A stretch of 64,000 bases of DNA, taken from contig JBAYUK010000001.1 of NCBI GenBank assembly GCA_041675145.1, positions 312,283 through 376,282 of the forward strand, in the 5' to 3' direction. Below, in pieces: positions 3,904 through 64,000 of this stretch. A model generated the notes under the pieces. It was given only the letters and a program-made list of their open reading frames with translations. It was not told the DNA's origin and did not search any database. Source of the DNA: Patescibacteria group bacterium. GTDB taxonomy: Bacteria > Patescibacteriota > JACPGU01. Positions within the stretch are counted from its first letter, which is position 1; each line of letters begins with the position of its first letter. Both the position numbers and the translations under genes were made by a program.

Positions 3904-4875
3904 TTATTTTTTATCCATCATCTTGTGAGCCGCTTCGATAATGTCGTCGGTGTCGATGTGGTATTTTTTGATTAATTTTTCAGGATCGCCGGATTCGCCA
4001 AATTTATCCCGGACTGCGACCAACGAAATTGGGACGGGGCAATGTTGCGCGGTGTATTCGGCAATTGCCGAGCCCAATCCTCCTGCCATTTGGTGGTCTT
4101 CGGTTACAATAAAGCGTTTACATTTCTTGGCATATACTTCGATTATCTTGCCGTCCAATGGCTTGATAGTATGCATGTTGATCACCGCGGCTCGTATGCC
4201 GTGTTTCTTTAGTTCCTTTGCGGCCAATAAGGCTCGGTAGACTGCTTCACCGTGAGCAAAGATAGCGATATCTCGTCCTTCTTGTAAGACCTGAGCACGA
4301 CCCACCTGAAACGGCGTCTTCTCGGTAGTAATAGAGGGGACATCACTTCGTCCAAAACGGATATATACTGGACCCAGTATCTTCGCTGCTGCACGTACGC
4401 ATTTTCTCGCTTGCCAGTAGTCAGCAGGTGCTAGTACCGTCACGCCGGGTAAGGTACGCATGATAGCAATATCTTCTAGTGCTTGGTGCGTTGCCCCGTC
4501 GCCACCGGTAGTAATACCCGCGTGACTGGCGACAATTTTCACATTGGCACGGTTGTATGCCACTGATACCCGGATCTGCGAGAGCGCTTGGTTGGGCGTA
4601 AAGACCGCAAAAGACGAGGTGAATGGAGTAAATCCTTCCAGCGCCAAACCGGCTGCAGCAGAAATCATGGTGGCTTCGGCAACACCCATCTCAAAGAAAC
4701 GAGTAGGGTACTTACGACGAAACTCGCTCACCTTGAGCGACTCAGCCAGATCCGCATCGAGCACGACAATCTTTTTATTTTTCTTGGCCAACTCCAACAG
4801 CTCGTCCCCGTACCCGGCGCGACATGACTTCTTCTCAGGACCAGTAAATAGTGTGGTGTCTAGGTAAAGATTCAT
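3904..4875 (-). CDS. tkt: transketolase, C-terminal (pyrimidine-binding) subunit
   Basis: 323 aa with FEMGVAEATMISAAAGLALEGFTPF...NRANVKIVASHAGITTGGDGATHQALEDIAIMRTLPG. Typical split-transketolase C-terminal subunit. Confidence 0.85.
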   Translation of the reverse strand: MNLYLDTTLFTGPEKKSCRAGYGDELLELAKKNKKIVVLDADLAESLKVSEFRRKYPTRFFEMGVAEATMISAAAGLALEGFTPFTSSFAVFTPNQALSQIRVSVAYNRANVKIVASHAGITTGGDGATHQALEDIAIMRTLPGVTVLAPADYWQARKCVRAAAKILGPVYIRFGRSDVPSITTEKTPFQVGRAQVLQEGRDIAIFAHGEAVYRALLAAKELKKHGIRAAVINMHTIKPLDGKIIEVYAKKCKRFIVTEDHQMAGGLGSAIAEYTAQHCPVPISLVAVRDKFGESGDPEKLIKKYHIDTDDIIEAAHKMMDKK

Positions 4876-5695: not shown

Positions 5696-6334
5696 CTATA
5701 CGCGAGATAAGTCTTCAAATGATTTTTTTGGGTCAGCGGCTTTCAGTATCGCACCACCTATAACTGCAGCGTCAGCCCCAGCATCCTTCACGGCGTGGAT
5801 GGTATTATGCGTAACGCCTCCGTCCACTTCAATAACAAGGTTCGGGAATTCACGTTTTAGTACACGTACTTTATCCAGCGCCTCAGGGATTAATTCTTGT
5901 CCACCAAATCCCGGGATAACTGTCATGACTAGTACGCCGTCAATCTGAGTGATATACGGGTGCAGTTTTTCAACACCTGTTCCAGGGTTAATACCGAGAT
6001 AGACCGCAATGCCCCTATGTTTGTAACGCTCAATAGCTACTGCAACATTATCTGACTCAATGTGAACTACAACCCGAGTAATTTCTAACCGCACAATTTC
6101 CGGCATTACCGCAACAGGGTCCACTACCATCAGGTGCGCTTCGTAGATACCACTTTTTGGTAAACTCACAATATCCGCCAGCTGAATGGTGGTGTTTTCT
6201 ACGAACTGTCCATCCATAATGTCTATTTGAACTTCGTCGGTCAGAGAAAGGGCGAGTTGTAGCTTGCTCTCAAACTCTGCACTGGAAAACGCTAAAATAG
6301 CAGGAATACTATGCATAGAGTCATCATAAAACAT
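5696..6334 (-). CDS. rpe: ribulose-phosphate 3-epimerase
   Basis: DIMDGQFVENTTI...HLMVVDP...MTVIPGFGGQELIPEALDKV...VDGGV. The start may instead be the internal Met at about 6316. Confidence 0.85.
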   Translation of the reverse strand: MFYDDSMHSIPAILAFSSAEFESKLQLALSLTDEVQIDIMDGQFVENTTIQLADIVSLPKSGIYEAHLMVVDPVAVMPEIVRLEITRVVVHIESDNVAVAIERYKHRGIAVYLGINPGTGVEKLHPYITQIDGVLVMTVIPGFGGQELIPEALDKVRVLKREFPNLVIEVDGGVTHNTIHAVKDAGADAAVIGGAILKAADPKKSFEDLSRV

Positions 6335-56738: not shown

Positions 56739-56825
56739 GAGCAACTGTTACTCGCTTTAGATCTTCTTCTATAGTAAAATATTAGCTGTATTGAGTACTT
56801 AGTAAACTAAGTACTCGTTTTTCCT

Positions 56826-56898
56826 GGGCGATTAGCTCACTTGGTAGAGCGCTTCCTTGACGTGGAAGAGGTAAGAAGTTCGAATCTTCTATCGCCCA
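56826..56898 (+). tRNA. tRNA-Val (anticodon GAC)
   Basis: Cloverleaf GGGCGAU/AUCGCCC, D GCUC/GAGC, anticodon arm CUUCC-UUGACGU-GGAAG and T-arm AGAAG-UUCGAAU-CUUCU, with discriminator A. Confidence 0.85.
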
Positions 56899-58448
56899 TT
56901 AAAGGCACCTAAATCGAATACTGGATGTTTCCGGAGTCGTGGTGCACAAAGATAGTCCAATGGTTCATTCAGGACCACACGGGCTATTTTTTTGTCCTTA
57001 ATCTCAATTCTCTTGAAAAACGTTTGTACGAGCATGTTCTTGAGCTCTGGCTGGGCCTTTTTGTATGTATAGTGACAATCTGTCGCTAATGATGTAGCGA
57101 TTTCTATGGTTCTAATAGCGGTACGAATCCTATTTTCCACCTTACCGAGCTCCTCTAGTAGCCTAGTTTCTTCAAGACCAAGCTCTACTTTGATCTTGTC
57201 ATACAGTTCAATGTCACTTGGCAACATGTGGTCTTGGCCTATAAGTTGCAGTACCAGGTTCTTTTTTTGGAGTTTAATATTGTCGATCTTCTTTGTGATG
57301 TCCTTTCGCGCATTTTCGTAGGTTGCTTGCTCGTTCGCGAATAGATCTCGCACTCTCGCTTTAATTTTGGTAGTAACCTCATCTGGCAAGTGAATCTTTT
57401 TGATGATTCCTTCGAGTTCAGTTGAAATATCGCTCTCATGGACAAATGATTGAGAGCAAGCCACCCTTTCATTCTTTTGAGCTTTCATGCAGCGCAGGTA
57501 GAGTATTACACGCTTACTGCTCGTCTTGTGCTCCTCAAGTGTCTGTCGACTTCCACATACCCCGCACCAACTCACGCCTTTTAACACAGAGAAGAGCCGG
57601 CGGTGTCTAGCACCACCGCTAGATCTTACATCAAGCAAAGCCTGGACCTTGTCGAAAACGTGCTGATTCAAGAAGAGCTCGTGTGTGCCCTCTGGATTCA
57701 CGAATCCACTCCACTCGATTATGCCAACGTAGAGTTTATTGCGGAGTATTTTTTCGACGTGACTGGCGTGTAGTTTGCCTTTCTCATTTCTGTTAGAACG
57801 AACCTTAAAACCCTCTTCCTGAAGGGTAGCTGTAAGAGACTTGATCGAATAGCTGCCGCTTGCATACAGCTCAAACGCTCTTATGACCCATTTTGCCTCT
57901 TCCCAGTTCACTTCAAGCCATGTGCGTGCTTTGTGGACCGACAGTCGTTCCTGGACATTTTTATAACCGTACGGTGCTTGCCCAGGCCATTGTCCTCCTC
58001 TTGCTTTCTGCAAGAGCCCAGCTTTTACCTTAGAACCACTTTGGCGCGAAAAAAACTCAGCTACAGTTGAAAGTACACCCTCAAGCATTTGCCCTCCGGG
58101 TGTATCGTCAATTCCTTCGGTGGCCGAACAAATCTTAATATCGTTTTGCTCAAGCTCCATTTTGGTAATAGCAAAATCCATGCGATTACGTGCAAAACGG
58201 CTGATATCGTAACAAACCACTGCCTTTACGTTTTTATCAGTGCGGCAACGCTCTAAAAGCATTTGAAACTGAGGCCTCTTGGTTGTCCGGGCACTTTCAC
58301 CCTCGTCAGCGTATACGTCTTTTTCCGGGCTCACATGGTAACCGTTTTCGTAGGCAAACTTAAAACATTCTTCTCGTTGCGTTGGGATAGAAAGCTGTTT
58401 TTCGGCTTGTCGATCAGTTGATACTCGTAGGTATATAAGGGCTGTCAT
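56889..58448 (-). CDS. large serine recombinase (resolvase-type catalytic domain + recombinase domain + zinc ribbon + coiled coil)
   Basis: MTALIYLRVSTDRQ is the catalytic Ser motif. 519 aa. Its stop overlaps the tRNA-Val 3' end. Confidence 0.85.
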   Translation of the reverse strand: MTALIYLRVSTDRQAEKQLSIPTQREECFKFAYENGYHVSPEKDVYADEGESARTTKRPQFQMLLERCRTDKNVKAVVCYDISRFARNRMDFAITKMELEQNDIKICSATEGIDDTPGGQMLEGVLSTVAEFFSRQSGSKVKAGLLQKARGGQWPGQAPYGYKNVQERLSVHKARTWLEVNWEEAKWVIRAFELYASGSYSIKSLTATLQEEGFKVRSNRNEKGKLHASHVEKILRNKLYVGIIEWSGFVNPEGTHELFLNQHVFDKVQALLDVRSSGGARHRRLFSVLKGVSWCGVCGSRQTLEEHKTSSKRVILYLRCMKAQKNERVACSQSFVHESDISTELEGIIKKIHLPDEVTTKIKARVRDLFANEQATYENARKDITKKIDNIKLQKKNLVLQLIGQDHMLPSDIELYDKIKVELGLEETRLLEELGKVENRIRTAIRTIEIATSLATDCHYTYKKAQPELKNMLVQTFFKRIEIKDKKIARVVLNEPLDYLCAPRLRKHPVFDLGAFNGR

Positions 58449-59101: not shown

Positions 59102-59344
59102 TTAGTCGGGCTTGTCATAGAGCCTTGTTTTAATGAGCCGCATTTGCACTAAAAGCTTCTGTGGCTCAAGACGTAACTTACCCTCTTTGTAGCGCTGTAT
59201 CGTGCCCTCAAGCGAATCAGAGTGCAAAAATACGAATATTGCCCGTGGTCCGCCTGAACGTTCAATTTTGATCATCTGTTGGTCCAGCGACATCAGGGCT
59301 GCTGCCAACCACATGTCGCTTGTCTGAAAGTTTTGTTTCATCAT
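59102..59344 (-). CDS. DUF5659-like small phage protein
   Basis: MMKQNFQTSDMWLAAALMSLDQQMIKIERSGGPRAIFVFLHSDSLEGTIQRYKEGKL follows the DUF5659 pattern (TSDLYLAxxL...FxF). Confidence 0.45.
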   Translation of the reverse strand: MMKQNFQTSDMWLAAALMSLDQQMIKIERSGGPRAIFVFLHSDSLEGTIQRYKEGKLRLEPQKLLVQMRLIKTRLYDKPD

Positions 59345-59532
59345 ACTTGGGTTTATTAATAGGCGATTTATTGGTAGCGGATTCGACTGCTTGGTCAAGC
59401 TGCTGCTGAGTGTCCCGAGCAACGAGCACGCAAAAACGAGCGATTTGGTCTATCGCCTGAGCTATTCCTTCCTCAAATTGTGGCTCAGTGTGCTGCTCGT
59501 TGGTTTTCATACACATAAAAATAATTTTGCCC

Positions 59533-59598: not shown

Positions 59599-60597
59599 TT
59601 ACTTTTTCTTGCGTTCACGAGGTTTTCTCTTGCGAGTACTCGTGCTATTCAAGTTACGCTTGTTCTCTTTTTGGCATTCTTTGCTGCAAGTTACCTGCTC
59701 TCTACCGCCCTTTTTAGGAGAAAAAGTGGAGTTGCATATAATACAAAGCTTACGCCCCAAGCGGACATTGTATTTTTTGTAGATATCATCCCAAGAGGGA
59801 GTTTTCTTGTTTACTCCCTGGAGTAGCCATAGGAGTATCTTGGAAGTTTCGTAAAAGTCGCTTGTAAACTTCGAAGCCCCCGACGCTCCCTCTTTTGTCT
59901 TTAAGGGAAAGTATCGGCTTAGGAGTGGTCTCCAGTAGAGTATTGGGTCAATCTTGAACCCTGATTCAGCAAACCATACGGCCATGTTTTCCAGTTCCTT
60001 GGGAGACAGGTTGTGTTTTTGTAGTATCTTACTGGCAACTGAACGTAAGTTGTCTTTTTCCCAGCGTGCCGTAAAATCGGTAACTTTTACATTCTCATCT
60101 TCAAGAAGGAAAGGATTTGCGACAGCCGTTTTACTGACGGAAGTAATCATTTCTTCGTGGGCCGTCAGGATGCTATTGATAACAGAGAAAGCTTCGTGAT
60201 ACCTAGCAATCTGGGTTAGGAGAGTGGTTTTACTATTCGTCAAAAAGCGCTCTATCACTTCCATATCCTCATCTACAATCTTGATAGTTCTGTTTTGTTG
60301 GACCAAAGCAAGAGAAAATATCTGTAAGGGCGTATAAAAGGCCATGGAGTGTGCGGAGGCCTCAGACGCTACTTCGTATCGTTTCAGCCACCCCGCAACG
60401 CCGTAGGCGATCTGAGAGCCTGCGGGTGCCACGATCTGAATGGCTGGCGTGAGCAAGCCCTGTTGTTGGTAAAAAGCAAGCTCCCGCCTGCTTGTAGTTA
60501 TGCCACGATCACTGACATGACGAATAAACATATTTACGTTCAGGAGGTCCTTTTCTCGAAAGGGAGCCGATAAATTGTATGGTTTTTCATTCTTCAT
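59599..60597 (-). CDS. hypothetical protein (332 aa) with a C-terminal CxxC...CxxC zinc ribbon and a basic tail
   Basis: CIICNSTF...CSKECQ, then the basic tail KRNLNSTSTRKRKPRERKKK. Confidence 0.45.
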   Translation of the reverse strand: MKNEKPYNLSAPFREKDLLNVNMFIRHVSDRGITTSRRELAFYQQQGLLTPAIQIVAPAGSQIAYGVAGWLKRYEVASEASAHSMAFYTPLQIFSLALVQQNRTIKIVDEDMEVIERFLTNSKTTLLTQIARYHEAFSVINSILTAHEEMITSVSKTAVANPFLLEDENVKVTDFTARWEKDNLRSVASKILQKHNLSPKELENMAVWFAESGFKIDPILYWRPLLSRYFPLKTKEGASGASKFTSDFYETSKILLWLLQGVNKKTPSWDDIYKKYNVRLGRKLCIICNSTFSPKKGGREQVTCSKECQKENKRNLNSTSTRKRKPRERKKK

Positions 60598-60639
60598 TTA
60601 TTTCTATTTTATCAAAAAACCCGCCATATCTACATGCTT

Positions 60640-60674
60640 TTGTGGCTTTGCAGATATTTTACGAAATGGTATAA
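60640..60674 (+). promoter_or_regulatory. sigma70 promoter with extended -10 (TTGCAG, 17-nt spacer, TGgTATAAT)
   Basis: Read directly from the sequence. It drives a long structured leader. Confidence 0.5.
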
Positions 60675-60689
60675 TTAAAATTACAAAAA

Positions 60690-60866
60690 GCTTGCCTAAC
60701 CCTCATCTCTTGGTGAGGTATGGTGAATAAATCCGGATATAGGGGAGAGAACTCTCCGTTTAAGGTGTTACCTATATCCGGTCTATGCTCGAAAGGGCAT
60801 AGGATAGTCGCAAGACTGTCGCATCTTAGCGGGGAGCTTTTTGCGTTTTAATACTAAATTATCACT
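60690..60866 (+). ncRNA. structured 5' leader (candidate cis-regulatory RNA) upstream of the thermonuclease gene
   Basis: Nested hairpins: CCTCA-N8-TGAGG, then CCGGATATAGG[GGAGAG-aa-CTCTCC]...CCTATATCCGG, then CTATGCTC-GAAA-GGGCATAG. No known riboswitch class recognised. Confidence 0.35.
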
Positions 60867-61847
60867 ATGCTTTTTGGCCTTTTTACACTCCTGTTTCTCG
60901 CTTCGTTCGTTCTGTTGATCGTTGGGCTTATCAACCCAAAGCCAGTCAGTAAGCTTTTTCGCAAAGAGTTCAGTCGTAAAACAATCGCTGGTTACTTCAG
61001 TGCGGCGGTGCTGGTTTTCTTTATCCTGAGCGGCGCTTCTGCTGGCCCTGTGCCAAAGAAAGCTGATCCACAGCAAGCAACTCAAGAAACAACTGAGCGG
61101 CCCGCCGCACAAGACGCCACTAGTCCTGACAACAATGAGGGCGTTGAGCCTGCTACGACCGCTGTGACAGCCAAAGAACAGCCGGACGCAAGTCAGCCTC
61201 TCTACGATGTCACTTCAGTCACTGACGGTGACACAATCAAAGTAAATATTGCCGGCAAGGTTGAATCAATTCGTCTGATTGGTCTTGATACCCCGGAGGT
61301 GGTCGATCCACGTAAACCAGTGCAATGCTTCGGCCAGGAAGCTTCAAAGCGTGCCAAGGACATCCTGACGGGCAAGAAGGTACGCCTGGAGGCTGACGCA
61401 GTGTCCGGTGAGCGAGACAAGTATAATCGCTTGCTCCGCTATGTGTGGCTTGAAGACGGCACATTGTTCAACAAACAGATGATTGCTGACGGTTACGCTT
61501 CTGAGTACACCTACCAGAGCCAGGTGTACAAGTATCAATCAGAGTTTAAAGAAGCCGAGAAACAGGCGCGCGATGGCCAGAAAGGGCTTTGGAATCCTAG
61601 TACGTGCAACGGCGACGCAACAAAGCCTGCTGTGACACCTGTGCCTGCGGTTACGCCTGCTCCTGCAGCTCAATCACCAACGCCAAAGCCTGCTCCTGCT
61701 CCAGCACCATCAGGATCAGTCGTTAAGAAGAGCAAGAGCAGTATCTGTCACGCTCCAGGCACGAAGTATTACGACCAAACGACCAACTTCACGCCATACA
61801 ATACTGTGGACGAGTGTCTGAACAGTGGCGGTAGGTTACCAAAATAG
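60867..61847 (+). CDS. membrane-anchored/secreted thermonuclease (staphylococcal nuclease, SNase fold) with a Pro/Ala-rich linker and a Cys-containing C-terminal domain
   Basis: DGDTIKV...IRLIGLDTPE...RYVWL...ADGYA are SNase motifs. About 58% GC. Confidence 0.8.
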   Translation: MLFGLFTLLFLASFVLLIVGLINPKPVSKLFRKEFSRKTIAGYFSAAVLVFFILSGASAGPVPKKADPQQATQETTERPAAQDATSPDNNEGVEPATTAVTAKEQPDASQPLYDVTSVTDGDTIKVNIAGKVESIRLIGLDTPEVVDPRKPVQCFGQEASKRAKDILTGKKVRLEADAVSGERDKYNRLLRYVWLEDGTLFNKQMIADGYASEYTYQSQVYKYQSEFKEAEKQARDGQKGLWNPSTCNGDATKPAVTPVPAVTPAPAAQSPTPKPAPAPAPSGSVVKKSKSSICHAPGTKYYDQTTNFTPYNTVDECLNSGGRLPK

Positions 61848-62262: not shown

Positions 62263-62267
62263 TAGGT

Positions 62268-62296
62268 TGACATACGCAACCCTATTGATACAATAG
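62268..62296 (+). promoter_or_regulatory. sigma70 promoter (TTGACA, 16-nt spacer, TACAAT) overlapped by the inverted repeat CCCTATT-gatac-AATAGGG
   Basis: Read directly from the sequence. The ATG is 6 nt after the -10, so the transcript is near-leaderless. Confidence 0.5.
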
Positions 62297-62300
62297 GGAC

Positions 62301-62855
62301 ATGTCAGATCGCCCAAAAGAGAAGCGACAATTTGAATGGCACCTCAGGGTAAACACGAGCAGTACGGGTACTGCAAACTTGTCGTTGTTTTTCCCAGAGG
62401 GGGCAACCAAAAAAGAAAAAGAAGCAGCCTTAGCTGCTGGTCTAGACGAAGCGACACAGCACATGTTGAGCCAAGGATACATATTGCCTAGTGATCGCTT
62501 TATGTCATCAGGAGATGTTGCTCTCAAGTACGGCAAAAGCAGGCAATACTGGGAGAAATTGCTTGTTGAAGGAAAAATACCTTATATGGAGACAAGCGCA
62601 GGGAAAATCACCACTGATTTATGGGTGCGGGGCTACTTGGATAATCGATCAGAAGTTGACGTGTATGTACAAAAAAGCAACCTGGCAGTAAAAAGAATCC
62701 TGGACGAATTGAAAAAACATACTACCGAGCTAAAGTTGTCGACCGATATCAGATGTCCTAACTGTGAAGAGGATGGGATGTCTTGCTATATCAACCGAGA
62801 CCATTTTGATGGTATGTGTAGCTCTTGTAAGTTTAAGTTGCGCAGAACTAAATAA
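62301..62855 (+). CDS. hypothetical protein (184 aa) with a C-terminal zinc ribbon
   Basis: The C-terminus reads CPNCEE...CSSC. Confidence 0.45.
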   Translation: MSDRPKEKRQFEWHLRVNTSSTGTANLSLFFPEGATKKEKEAALAAGLDEATQHMLSQGYILPSDRFMSSGDVALKYGKSRQYWEKLLVEGKIPYMETSAGKITTDLWVRGYLDNRSEVDVYVQKSNLAVKRILDELKKHTTELKLSTDIRCPNCEEDGMSCYINRDHFDGMCSSCKFKLRRTK

Positions 62856-62864
62856 CACCACCCA

Positions 62865-64000
62865 TGAGAATAGATAATGCAAAACTAAAAAGCGGAGAGG
62901 ACCTCCAGTTTGGAGATTTCAATGTTTTTGTTGGCGGTAATGGCGTAGGAAAAACAACTATCGTATCAGAGGTATTTGATAAGATATCTGCTGCAAATGG
63001 TAGTAAATATTTGTGGATCGACCAACTATCGCATTCAGCGAATGATGTGACTGCTGATCTTAAGCTACTCAAGAAGTCTCTTGCTCACCAAAGAGAAGGG
63101 GCAAGCCTTTTTTATCTTTCTAGTGCTACTAAAGGCATAGGTGGAAATATAGACCTGGACGGATCGCTTAGGTTCTCTGAGGGCGAAGTAGCGCAGATGG
63201 AGTCAGTAACTGATGCTAGTATTTTTAATACACCGAAATACAGAAGGCCATTTATTACTTTTTCAAGTTGTGAAAGTCGATTAACCTTTCCAGATGGGGC
63301 TGGCTTGACTGGCTTAGACCAGCCTCCTTCCGACGCTCTGAACGTTCTTTTTCGAGATGGTGGCCTCATGGAGGACATTAGCGATCACATCCATAGGCGC
63401 TTTGGTTATTATTTAGTGCTAATAGATCACACCTTCACGGCGTTAAAGGTGGGTATATCCCATACGAAACCACCAGATTTTGACAGAAATGCCCGTGATA
63501 AGCAGAGCGCATCAGACAAAGTAAGGAAGTGGGAGGAGGAACATCTTATCCCAATTACTAAAGCTGGGCATGGAATCAGAAGTATGGTCAAGCTGCTCAC
63601 GGCACTTTTGGAACCAGTAAATCAGATTATAATAATTGATGAACCTGAGCTCCATCTTTACCCCTCTCAAAAGAGATGGTTCGGTTACCAGCTTGCATTG
63701 TTGGCTTCTACCCAAAATAAACAGATATTTTTAGTAACTCACGACGCATCAATTCTTCAGGGTATATTTGAAGGCAGTGCAAATACTCATCTTTTTCGGG
63801 TCAACAAAGACAACCATGGTGTAGGCACAGTACGTTCTTGTCAGCTACCGAAGCAGTCAATTTCTCACTCAAAAAATCAACATCAATATCTACAGGGTTT
63901 ATTTTATCAGCGCTGTGTCGTCGTGGAGGGCTCATCAGATCGTCTTTTCTATGAAACGCTGTTTAACGATTACCCTAAGGTTCAAGATAAGGACCTGGGG
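62865..64000 (+). CDS. OLD-family / GajA-like ABC-type ATPase with the start of a Toprim nuclease domain (partial, runs off the window)
   Basis: Manual translation gives FGDFNVFVGGNGVGKTTI (Walker A), IIIIDEPELHLYP (Walker B), FLVTHD (H-loop), then VVVEGSSDRLFYE (Toprim start). Confidence 0.7.

Follow-up and report, generated by a model that had tools for sequence, protein, structure and literature searches.

LOOT RNAs as candidate two-state leaders of accessory genes in mobile elements of Patescibacteria

The structured RNA upstream of a secreted nuclease gene in the analysed stretch of Patescibacteria DNA (64 kb, below called the window) is a member of the LOOT family, an already known class. 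It is an ordinary member of this family and not a new nuclease riboswitch. Comparison with related loci leads us to propose that LOOT RNAs are two-state terminator/antiterminator leaders by which integrating phage-like elements of Patescibacteria gate their accessory genes, a reading to which we assign a probability of roughly 0.55.

A LOOT RNA upstream of the nuclease gene

Positions 60693-60820 (+) of the window match the covariance model of the LOOT RNA (Rfam RF03000) with 79.6 bits (GA 46.4). The match spans model positions 1-121/121 and has E = 2e-13 on the whole window. The initial annotation had recognised no riboswitch class in this leader and suggested a covariance-model comparison with Rfam. 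When this comparison was run, its first statement held for riboswitches, as no class matched and the best model, Lysine, reached 12.2 bits (GA 30, E = 1.3), but not for RNA families in general, as the curated LOOT family does match. A hit of rli52 to 60442-60545 (-) was discarded as non-significant (25.8 bits, GA 70).

The LOOT motif was published by Weinberg et al. 2017 (NAR 45:10811, PMC5737381), whose main text does not contain its description, and Rfam 14 (PMC7779021) displays it as a 'metagenomic-based RNA'. No function has been proposed for it in the searchable literature.

The candidate signals and structural elements in the window are as follows.

60647..60675, + strand: sigma-70-type promoter, -35 box TTTGCA (60647-52), 17-nt spacer, extended -10 box TGgTATAAT (60667-75)
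60683..60694, + strand: predicted 5' end of the transcript, ACAAAAAGCUUG, the window version of the family motif ACAAyUrAAUA
60693..60725, + strand: P1, hairpin with an internal loop (from the Rfam alignment), stem 60701-07/60712-18 (CCUCAUC/GGUGAGG), loop UCUU
60695-700 / 60719-23, + strand: internal loop of P1, CCUAAC / UAUGG, similar to the 11-nt GAAA tetraloop receptor
60726..60732, + strand: A-rich linker AAUAAAU between P1 and P2
60733..60781, + strand: P2, 11-bp stem P2a (CCGGAUAUAGG at 60733-43 paired with CCUAUAUCCGG at 60771-81) and apical hairpin GGAGAG-AA-CUCUCC (60744-57)
60783..60802, + strand: P3, 8-bp stem with a GAAA tetraloop at 60791-94 (from the Rfam alignment and the MFE structure)
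60803..60820, + strand: P4, GAUAGUC-GCAA-GACUGUC, 7-bp stem with a GCAA tetraloop (from the Rfam alignment and the MFE structure)
60818..60849, + strand: 3' tail, core B' CUUAGCGGGGAG (60825-36) pairing with the P2 apical region, then the U-tract UUUUUGCGUUUU (60838-49)
60867..61847, + strand: gene of a secreted, membrane-anchored thermonuclease, SNase domain at residues 135-243

All three hairpin elements of the initial annotation are present: the CCUCA...UGAGG element is the P1 stem (60701-18), the long-range stem enclosing GGAGAG-aa-CUCUCC is P2, and the 8-bp stem with a GAAA tetraloop is P3. The extended -10 promoter placed before the leader was confirmed as well. The initial annotation had overlooked the P4 hairpin and had not noted that the loop of P2 is complementary to the 3' tail.

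The window copy and RF03000 are alike in the four hairpins P1-P4 with standard pairs, the CCUAA...AUGG bulge in P1, the GAAA loop of P3 and the GNRA loop that makes a stable P4 tetraloop; no defining difference was found. The P2 apical part alone is off the consensus register, and the window RNA has its own 6-bp apical hairpin there instead. Folding the window RNA gives an MFE of -73 kcal/mol, whereas 200 dinucleotide shuffles average -46.9 +/- 4.2 (z = -6.2) and none of them was as good.

The relatives compared comprise 92 genome loci and 13 loci on viral contigs. The former are the true matches among 97 genome loci retrieved with a LOOT sequence pattern. Because this pattern itself fixed several of the conserved nucleotides, the GAAA loop and parts of the receptor among them, their conservation was judged by the Rfam consensus and the 13 pattern-free matches. 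The strict LOOT DNA pattern had no matches in IMG/VR; it was too strict, and an nhmmer profile later gave the 13 copies. Nearly all of the 92 true loci come from Patescibacteria (CPR) MAGs, and the proteins of the window are NCBI 'Patescibacteria group bacterium' entries.

The initial annotation had made its case depend on conservation of the structure in homologous loci, and covarying helices were indeed found in the relatives. In P3, 96.7% of the alignment cells are paired, with double changes in 8/8 pairs. Three A columns of the P1-P2 linker, not forced by the search pattern, are at least 90% conserved. In the relatives the P4 loop is either GNRA or UUCG, so that its only role is probably that of a stable cap.

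The 11-nt GAAA tetraloop receptor occurs in group I and group II introns and in RNase P. Its canonical form, with Mg2+-dependent docking, is CCUAAG/UAUGG (PMC11381326). The internal loop of P1 in the window (CCUAAC/UAUGG) is identical to it at 10/11 positions, and the LOOT family consensus CCUAAA/CAUGG at 9/11. The closing G-U wobble of the receptor is replaced in LOOT by A/C (73 loci) or C/U (15 loci), and the variable positions co-vary, with C/C in four loci and A/U in one. The GAAA loop of LOOT is on P3; the window RNA contains a CCUAAG/UAUGG-type internal loop and a GAAA loop within one molecule. From these motifs we infer that the P3 loop may dock into the P1 receptor and brace the Rfam fold.

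Promoter and leader position

The window promoter has a 10/12 match together with the TG, and it is the sole promoter-like site on the + strand in 60300-61100. Upstream regions of the LOOT family can be aligned and show T-12, A-11, T-7, G-14 and TT at -35/-34, numbered from the A of the ACAA motif. Canonical -35, TGn and -10 elements are kept at a fixed distance from ACAA across the family. The motif is found 6-35 nt (mostly 13-17 nt) 5' of CCUAA in 72/93 loci, and the -10 box precedes it by 6-7 nt. In the window it is only partly kept, and transcription is predicted to start near 60683. A role of the motif as a sigma-dependent pause (-10-like) element was rejected by sequence inspection, as there is no A at the position equivalent to -11.

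Positions 60684-92 of the window are complementary to AGCUUUUUG in the tail (60835-43), and the two are paired in the MFE structure; this pairing is not conserved in the LOOT family. In a family-wide comparison, pairing of the conserved 5' end with the start-codon region was no better than with internal CDS windows (p = 0.98). The GCUUUUUG repeat, which is specific to the window, is therefore not explained by such pairing.

The nuclease gene has no Shine-Dalgarno box and no separate promoter, and thus it is likely to be read from the LOOT promoter. Its AUG follows the final U of the tail at a distance of 17 nt. Across the family, 79/90 loci have an ATG-ORF of 60 aa or more on the same strand, starting 20-140 nt past the LOOT core, whereas random positions have one in 27% of cases; the ORFs downstream of LOOT at the other loci are shorter or do not start with ATG. 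When related elements are compared, the homology covering the recombinase and LOOT stops about at the start codon of the cargo gene.

The downstream ORFs are unrelated to each other and mostly encode membrane or secreted proteins. The 73 first downstream proteins have hits to 64 different Pfam families, none of which is seen in more than six proteins; zinc-ribbon/TM proteins, Ltp, DUF805, DNA methylase, DUF2726 and SNase are among them. SNase accounts for 2/73 first genes. Its homologues occur directly after LOOT in locus L044 and inside the LOOT operons of L011 and L087. LOOT appears to be the 5' leader of whichever gene follows, and as these genes have so little in common it is not a nuclease-specific element.

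Two alternative folds

The 3' end of the window RNA, GCGGGGAGCUUUUUGCGUUUU, extends to 60849. The P2 apical region B (60741-60771) is complementary to the 3' tail. Their pairing gives a loop-tail helix of about 19 bp that runs into the U-tract and is omitted from the Rfam model. In the window this duplex has an energy of -26.9 kcal/mol and ends at GAGC, directly before UUUUUGCGUUUU.

The helix is a property of the family. Its median length across loci is 19 bp, and a tail pairs with the loop of its own locus at -26.7 kcal/mol and with foreign loops at -14.8 kcal/mol; the own loop is within the best 20% for 92/93 loci. In a structure-naive MAFFT alignment 82-91% of the cells of the helix pair, with double changes in 15/17 pairs. 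The annotated stems covary no better than this helix. When partners in the same alignment are slid by 1-3 columns, pairing of the whole structure falls to 39-48%. The U-tract following the helix is conserved too, and LOOT tails resemble bona fide terminators of the same genome (CUUUGUUGUU-like tails).

The initial annotation had taken the G/C-rich end with its U-tract for a possible terminator or antiterminator. A terminator-like helix and an alternative, antiterminator-like fold do exist. A hairpin-plus-U scan did not flag the LOOT 3' end, because the stem is long-range.

Two folds can be drawn from these elements. Fold 1 would be the Rfam fold P1-P4, braced by docking of the P3 GAAA loop into the P1 receptor, with the 3' tail single-stranded. 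In fold 2 the whole P2 apical part would be paired with the tail over about 19 bp into the U-tract, producing a structure like an intrinsic terminator. Since the P2 stem passes into the loop-tail helix with no linker on the 5' side and only a few nucleotides on the 3' side, the full helix and P2 should be mutually exclusive on steric and topological grounds; a partial pseudoknot could coexist with P2. The energies of the two folds are nearly equal: E(fold 2) - E(fold 1) is -4.4 +/- 4.0 kcal/mol for 92 loci. Calculated for secondary structure only, they slightly favour fold 2 in most loci and fold 1 in the window (-54.3 for fold 2 and -57.1 for fold 1).

Mobile-element context

The window contains an island integrated at the tRNA-Val gene of a Patescibacteria genome, with a large serine recombinase and defence-type genes. 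Its left end was mapped by the following features.

56825-56899, + strand: tRNA-Val, left end of the mobile element
56889-58448, - strand: large serine recombinase gene (phrog_95 integrase, E = 2e-92), its 3' end overlapping tRNA-Val

In the relatives too, LOOT sits in prophages or tRNA-integrated elements that encode a large serine recombinase. These recombinases form the biggest cluster of LOOT neighbours (27 loci, and 16 of the 39 loci for which 4 kb or more of upstream DNA is available) and are almost always upstream of LOOT. The same linkage was seen from an independent start, homologues in IMG/VR of nine short recombinases adjoining LOOT. LOOT scored above the Rfam GA in 13 of the 67 viral contigs found in this way, and in seven of these 13 the two are adjacent and divergent. 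Genes for TerL and TerS are present in LOOT loci. Cargo genes are found on viral contigs as well, and the orientation and spacing of the ORFs are fixed, which excludes that the cargo is host DNA beyond the end of the element. A core housekeeping RNA of CPR was also rejected, given the sporadic distribution, the multiple copies per genome and a context that is always a mobile element.

Possible mode of regulation

When fold 1 is kept, RNA polymerase would read through, and the unstructured tail next to an AUG without a Shine-Dalgarno box would let ribosomes initiate. When fold 2 forms, transcription would end at about 60845-60850 with release of an RNA of about 165 nt, and/or the initiation region would be buried. 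The balance of the folds could respond to docking dependent on Mg2+ or temperature, or to a factor of the host or the phage; LOOT has no evident sensor pocket or ligand.

A wider generalization is more tentative, and we think it somewhat less probable than the opposite. LOOT may be a cis-regulatory class, so far seen almost exclusively in the mobile elements of Patescibacteria, where it would be a portable promoter-and-leader cassette that temperate phages and large-serine-recombinase elements place before accessory genes (surface, exclusion, defence). In such a switch the 5' strand of the terminator would be a complete hairpin loop, antitermination would be enforced sterically by the hairpin and the tetraloop-receptor brace, and a subset would carry a masked anti-RBS strand.

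Several other explanations were considered. LOOT was reportedly first described from ocean metagenomes only, as a likely trans-acting sRNA, and the Rfam type of RF03000 is 'Gene; sRNA'. One possibility is that LOOT is indeed such a free-standing RNA and that downstream genes are expressed by leaky read-through. Its own promoter and terminator-like 3' end fit this, and several genomes have at least two copies (L012/L057, L023/L038, and two in L080). Fold 2 would bare the 11-nt P2 strands as potential seeds. However, nearly every copy has a same-strand ORF within a few tens of nucleotides, with no room for another promoter, and the homology modules stop about at the start codon. Moreover, no convincing complementary target beyond chance was found in the 64-kb window, either for the P2 strand (17 at no more than 2 mismatches against 9.8 expected, all except the two P2 arms themselves having 2 mismatches) or for the tail (6 against 13 expected), and in the loci where targets exist they sit in the downstream leader of LOOT itself. 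We consider this explanation unlikely, though the strongest of the alternatives.

Next in order, and unlikely too, is a structural leader that does not switch at all: a cap against 5'-end-dependent decay, an RNase III site, or an insulator for context-independent moron expression. The very compact and stable fold with tetraloops and a receptor could suit a cap, and the 19-bp helix is a plausible substrate of RNase III. The unrelated genes behind LOOT, as well as the tandem LOOT cassettes in L080, are what one would expect of a generic expression module. On the other hand, a mere stabiliser would need neither two mutually exclusive helices, both maintained by covariation at near-equal energy, nor the conserved U-tract after the helix.

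The third alternative is same-transcript antisense regulation of the P1/P7 c4 or P4 CI type. The P2 3' strand and the tail would pair with partner copies before the start codon of the cargo gene and block its translation, P2 being an anti-sequestor. Indeed, 14/90 genome and 6/13 viral loci carry a repeat of the linker and the P2 5' strand directly in front of the AUG (for instance, AAAACCGCUACAGUGcuuAUG in L014), and the repeat and P2 covary across phyla. Often there is another box between the U-tract and the repeat, with complementarity to the tail. The MFE folds of read-through leaders shift to box pairings, and the context is that of prophages. However, the window has no boxes, about 80-85% of loci lack them, no Rfam c4 model matches, and the genes regulated are cargo, not antirepressors. 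As a full account this is rather improbable; the boxes are better viewed as an extra layer on the two-state leader and not as its rival.

The initial annotation had suggested a candidate riboswitch or thermosensor controlling a potentially self-toxic nuclease. Its general part, a structured leader with its own promoter and alternative folds, stands; a ligand-binding riboswitch or RNA thermometer dedicated to silencing the nuclease is distinctly improbable. Terminator and antiterminator alternatives do exist, and docking of a tetraloop into its receptor depends on Mg2+ and temperature. But LOOT precedes dozens of unrelated genes without a common pathway, SNase being a rare one, the known riboswitch models do not match, and the conserved unpaired nucleotides are mostly tertiary-contact motifs (tetraloop and receptor, A-rich linker), so that a metabolite riboswitch is not indicated. 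Neither is a classical RNA thermometer, as there is no Shine-Dalgarno box and no weak helix over the AUG, which follows the U-tract at a distance, and family-wide pairing of the 5' end with the AUG was negative.

Finally, a DNA-level element such as an attachment or recombination site of the adjoining serine recombinase, with hairpins as inverted repeats, is suggested by the tight linkage to recombinase genes and by the length of the P2 inverted repeat (about 49 bp, close to the size of attP), but it is hardly credible. Integration would split attP, yet integrated copies have an intact P2. The helices are specific to one strand because of their G-U pairs (GU 28, GU 40 and UG 58 at individual pairs), GNRA/UUCG loops and a receptor motif are present, the orientation of promoter and ORF is fixed, and the position relative to the tRNA junction varies.

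The present analysis suggests several additions to the family record: Patescibacteria hosts, the serine-recombinase/prophage context, the leader position, the 5' ACAAyUrAAUA motif, and the loop-tail helix with its U-tract beyond the 121-position model. The window copy has all components of such an extended definition (a tail with complementarity to the P2 apical region and a U-tract behind it, a promoter with the ACAA motif, and a same-strand ORF directly downstream), the 5' motif in part. As LOOT marks the cargo slots of prophages in CPR MAGs, annotation would benefit from an extended model. To our knowledge, almost nothing is known about gene regulation in uncultured CPR episymbionts. LOOT has so far been an orphan Rfam family; its mobile context, leader position and second fold make it a testable system, and the two-fold model is a specific, mutable hypothesis of how mobile elements of CPR control surface, exclusion and defence cargo. 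LOOT could also serve CPR genetics as a natural expression module.

Comparison with known regulatory RNAs

The c4 antisense RNA of P1/P7 and the CI RNA of satellite P4 are prophage RNAs acting on complementary boxes in their own transcript. Like them, LOOT is prophage-borne and lies upstream of the regulated gene, on its strand. About 15% of the genome loci of LOOT and about half of the viral ones have similar co-varying boxes over the site where translation of the following gene starts. The structures are unrelated, however. The pairing segments of LOOT are masked in its own helices, the window copy is without boxes, and the targets are cargo genes.

The lambda PR'-tR' 6S leader and the HK022 put RNAs are phage leaders that end at a terminator or override it. 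LOOT resembles them in having a constitutive phage promoter, a leader of about 170-190 nt and, immediately before genes that would depend on read-through, a predicted terminator. In contrast, no homologue of Q or N and no put-like two-hairpin motif was identified for LOOT, whose highly conserved fold is probably a tertiary one and whose downstream genes are accessory, not late, genes.

Further parallels are the c-di-GMP-I (GEMM-I) and M-box leaders. Both are terminator/antiterminator riboswitches with a tetraloop-receptor brace, the M-box sensing Mg2+. They are 5' leaders that can adopt either of two folds, of which one runs into a U-tract, as is proposed for LOOT. Like LOOT, they precede very diverse genes, often encoding membrane or secreted proteins, including genes on phages. 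They have a distal contact between a GAAA tetraloop and its receptor, which in LOOT would stabilise the non-terminating fold. Their covariance models do not match LOOT, which has no apparent conserved junction pocket. The switch itself differs as well: the 5' strand of the putative LOOT terminator is an entire hairpin loop, and the two folds would exclude each other sterically and not by sharing nucleotides.

The leader of the SNase gene

The SNase gene is preceded by a member of the LOOT RNA family (RF03000), which is the sole non-tRNA Rfam match in the whole window (60693-60820, + strand; 79.6 bits, gathering score 46.4; aligned over model positions 1-121 of 121). The intergenic region has the following features, the promoter, hairpins and 3' end being read from the sequence.

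59599-60597, - strand: leftward ORF of 332 aa, left flank
60647-60675, + strand: promoter TTTGCA-17-TGgTATAAT
+ strand: P1 hairpin, CCUCAUC/GGUGAGG
+ strand: P2, long stem CCGGAUAUAGG/CCUAUAUCCGG with GGAGAG-AA-CUCUCC inside
+ strand: P3, 8-bp stem with a GAAA loop
60803-60820, + strand: P4, hairpin with a GCAA loop
+ strand: 3' end of the leader, G/C-rich stretch followed by UUUUUGCGUUUU
60867-61847, + strand: SNase ORF, right flank

Besides this promoter, no promoter-like site lies on the + strand between 60300 and 61100. The AUG of the SNase gene lies 17 nt past the last U of the tail, and neither a Shine-Dalgarno (SD) box at this site nor a second promoter in the scanned region was found. 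The leader is a genuine, non-random structured RNA; the segment 60680-60870 folds with -73 kcal/mol, compared to -46.9 +/- 4.2 for shuffled sequences (z = -6.2). All leader elements listed in the initial annotation are present, and the fourth hairpin, P4, had been overlooked.

The same annotation recognized no riboswitch class, and neither did a sensitive regional Rfam scan (Lysine, 12.2 bits against 30), which matched the known family instead. Thus the leader is an additional LOOT member and not a new class of RNA. The family stems from the Weinberg/Breaker 2017 survey (PMC5737381), whose main text carries no description of LOOT. Rfam 14 shows it as a 'metagenomic-based RNA' (PMC7779021), its heavy covariation has been remarked on (PMC7657543), and two extra covarying pairs were added in Rfam 15. 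No proposed function was found in the searchable literature. The original description reportedly gave ocean metagenomes as the known source and considered LOOT a likely sRNA.

Relatives and downstream genes

Relatives were collected with a pattern of conserved LOOT nucleotides, which has one match in the window (0 expected) and 97 in a collection of species-representative genomes. Five of the latter are obviously false, falling within genes of unrelated organisms. The 92 loci kept come nearly all from MAGs of Patescibacteria lineages, including Saccharibacteria, Paceibacterota/Parcubacteria, Gottesman-, Berkel-, Nomura-, Taylor-, Yanofsky- and Kaiserbacteria, WWE3 and others, and some genomes contain two copies. 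The window SNase is NCBI MFA7308851 from a 'Patescibacteria group bacterium' MAG. Loci L007, L011, L025, L042, L058, L066, L060 and L074 belong to MAGs labelled Gammaproteobacteria, Pseudomonadales or Bdellovibrionales. These contigs are probably mislabelled or mis-binned Patescibacteria, as one such isolate is named 'HK-STAS-PATE-15'. The SNase of L011 is 50% identical to that of the window.

In 79 of 90 evaluable loci a same-strand ATG-ORF of at least 60 aa starts 20-140 nt (median 57) past the Rfam core, compared to 27% for random positions and strands. In loci outside this first filter the starts are even nearer to the U-tract, some abutting it. SD boxes were found at 15 of 73 predicted starts of these downstream (cargo) genes, the start calls being crude. 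On the 5' side, the motif ACAA(y)U(r)AAUA precedes CCUAA by 6-35 nt (mostly 13-17) in 72 of the 93 loci for which 70 nt or more of upstream sequence is available. Upstream DNA aligned on this motif contains T-12, A-11, T-7, G-14 and TT at -35/-34. The predicted LOOT promoter is a canonical extended -10 promoter with the start site at the A of ACAA. The window counterpart of the motif, ACAAAAAGCUUG, is 1 nt farther from the -10 box.

The 73 cargo proteins represent 64 Pfam families. The most common are zinc-ribbon domains (six proteins); others are SNase (only two), DUF805, SHOCT, the superinfection-exclusion lipoprotein Ltp, DUF2726, TPR proteins and a DNA methylase. Hydrophobic, transmembrane-like segments occur in 49 of 73 cargo proteins and in 142 of 567 other ORFs from the same loci (odds ratio 6.1, p = 3e-12). 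Elsewhere in LOOT units, SNase is encoded by the first gene in L044 and by the second gene in L011 and L087. As SNase recurs amid unrelated cargo, the leader is not nuclease-specific. The earlier suggestion of a riboswitch or thermosensor for a toxic nuclease is supported in part: the leader and the terminator-type alternative stand, and the nuclease specificity and the sensing of ligand or temperature are not supported. In L080, two LOOT copies (4604-4753 and 5873-6025) are arranged in tandem cassettes 1.27 kb apart, each followed by its own ORF, the second encoding a 483-aa N6/N4 DNA methyltransferase-like protein.

Mobile-element setting

The surroundings of the LOOT-SNase unit contain the following genes.

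56825-56899, + strand: tRNA-Val, 11-nt overlap with the 3' end of the recombinase gene
to 58448, - strand: large serine recombinase, 519 aa, Resolvase, Recombinase and Zn_ribbon_recom domains (phrog_95 integrase, E = 2e-92)
59102-59422, - strand: DUF5659 protein, among small leftward genes between the recombinase and the divergent LOOT-SNase unit
62866-64000, followed further in L098 (11998-13656): OLD-family nuclease, its ORF extending past the right edge of the window, 552 aa, AAA_15/AAA_21 and OLD-like TOPRIM domains, with a radical-SAM/SPASM gene next

The tRNA-Val/recombinase overlap (56825-58448) resembles an integration junction of a mobile element, and similar convergent arrangements of a tRNA and a recombinase 3' end were found in L044 and L115. 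To the right of the unit, the contig carries two small ORFs, the OLD-family nuclease and the radical-SAM/SPASM gene. Given this junction and the latter two genes, the region is an integrated island carrying defence-type genes. A promoter close to consensus (62267-62294; TTGACA-16-TACAAT, 11/12, extended by TG) precedes an ORF at 62301-62855; the 184-aa product of this ORF has a Cys-rich motif at the C-terminus and no match in the family search.

The largest cluster of flanking ORFs over the 92 loci is formed by serine recombinases (29 proteins in 27 loci); of the 39 loci with 4 kb or more of upstream sequence, 16 have one. Nearly all lie upstream of LOOT: some are divergent, at -100 to -2250 nt, and others share its strand and end 37-40 nt short of it. 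Other recurrent neighbours are a TerS-like HTH protein, TerL (phrog_38, E = 5e-74), a DNA methylase (N6_N4_Mtase), rolling-circle Rep, ImmA/IrrE peptidase, a MerR-like HTH protein and DUF5659. DUF5659 lies beside the recombinase in the window and in clusters of L025, L055, L056, L061 and L097.

An independent check started from recombinase homologues in IMG/VR. Among 67 viral contigs, 13 contain LOOT (nhmmer), all 13 passing the Rfam gathering score; seven of these copies are divergent, approximately 170-230 nt from the recombinase start. The related elements L014/L024 and L047/L051 share the recombinase and LOOT, with homology ending approximately at the cargo start codon. Each of six IMG/VR contigs encodes two related serine recombinases, whose genes are separated by tens of kb and sometimes lie near both contig ends (pairs L103/L104, L119/L132, L118/L135, L126/L149, L124/L152, L163/L164); these could be tandem prophages or result from assembly of related elements.

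An alternative helix

In the Rfam fold P1-P4 are formed and the 3' tail is single-stranded. In every locus, the sequence following P4 is complementary, G-U pairs included, to the apical part of P2, e.g. AAGCUCGUCGUCAG and CUGGCGGCGAGCUU in L035. In the window the partners are 60741-60771 and 60818-60845 with the core CUCUCCGUUUAAG/CUUAGCGGGGAG. This loop-tail helix is conserved and missing from the Rfam LOOT model. With a median length of 19 bp, it runs from the A-rich stretch that directly follows the P2 5' strand to within the U-tract. The mean duplex energy is -26.7 kcal/mol with the own loop compared to -14.8 with loops of other loci, and the own loop is within the best 20% for 92 of 93 loci.

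Covariation was assessed on a structure-naive MAFFT alignment of 90 sequences with 17 modelled loop-tail pairs. These are 82-91% paired, and 15 of them have changes on both sides (e.g. UA 34/CG 29/UG 26 and CG 24/AU 20/GC 20/UG 10). Sliding the partners by 1-3 columns decreases pairing over the whole structure from 88% to 39-48%. The loop-tail helix covaries on a par with P1, P3 and P4. The tails end with CUUUUUGY/CUUUGUGUU-type tracts, similar to canonical terminators elsewhere in the window genome (e.g. 45814-45791).

Covariation upholds both P2 and the loop-tail helix, which starts 0 nt from the P2 5' strand and stops a few nt short of the 3' strand. By the dimensions of A-form RNA, P2 and the complete loop-tail helix look mutually exclusive: about 19 bp make a rigid helix of about 50 A, which the loop of a closed 11-bp hairpin could not form, and the 3' end would in addition have to be threaded through. 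In constrained folding of 92 loci, the loop-tail fold differs from the Rfam fold with a free tail by -4.4 +/- 4.0 kcal/mol; the window values are -54.3 and -57.1, respectively. Such near-equal energies would be expected of a switch.

There are two copies of the 8-mer GCUUUUUG, in the terminator-like U-tract (60836-60843) and from the G of the SNase AUG (60869-60876), and CAAAAAGC at the predicted RNA 5' end (60684-60691) is complementary to both copies. In minimum-energy folds the 5' end of the short RNA pairs with the first copy, and that of the read-through RNA with the second. These pairings are not conserved across the LOOT family.

Candidate tertiary contact

The internal loop of P1 matches the 11-nt GAAA-tetraloop receptor CCUAAG/UAUGG (PMC11381326) except for the closing wobble, whose positions covary (A/C 73, C/U 15, C/C 4, A/U 1). 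In the window this loop reads CCUAAC/UAUGG, and most relatives have CCUAAA/CAUGG. The P3 loop is GAAA, and the P4 loop is GNRA or even UUCG. The latter was found in viral copies L140, L134, L125 and L132, three of which have GAAA in P3 (L132 has GGAAU); the remaining nine viral copies retain the P3 GAAA. As the P4 loop varies while P3 holds GAAA, P3 is the likely docking partner of the P1 receptor, and the sequences suggest that the contact is limited to the P3 loop. When P2 is closed, P1 and P3 flank its base; when it is open, a single strand and the long helix separate them. Hence docking would favour the Rfam, non-terminating fold.

Proposed mechanism and additional boxes

The computation shows that the RNA belongs to the family, in what genomic context it lies, that it is placed as a leader, and that it has both helices at near-equal energies; the proposed mechanism would further involve docking, termination, a direction of control and a signal. 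After firing of the LOOT promoter, P1-P4 would fold co-transcriptionally. If the Rfam fold persists as the tail emerges, the polymerase would enter the SD-less cargo ORF, and the unstructured tail may serve as a ribosome landing site. If the loop-tail helix prevails instead, transcription would end in the U-tract and/or the initiation region would be sequestered. New relative to the searchable literature are the Patescibacteria host, the linkage to serine-recombinase elements, the placement as an obligatory leader, the helix absent from the Rfam model and the candidate two-state design. These comparative results make the RNA experimentally tractable.

In 14 of 90 genome loci and 6 of 13 viral loci, the A-rich linker and the P2 5' strand are repeated directly before the AUG (L014, L024, L026, L038, L044, L048, L056, L078, L113, L115, L125, L131, L132, L140 and L080 (6030-6052), among others; in L080 the sequence is AAAAGCUAUCCCUAGU-AUG). 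Many of these loci have a further box, complementary to the tail, between the U-tract and this repeat. A search of the 64-kb window for matches to the P2 strand and the tail found neither box in the window leader. The pre-AUG repeats covary with P2 across phyla. Predicted folds of read-through leaders switch to pairing of the P2 3' strand with the box, which would bury the initiation region. The pre-AUG boxes together with P2 have the logic of an anti-sequestor/sequestor pair, and in this respect the box-carrying LOOT loci resemble the c4 and P4-CI systems.
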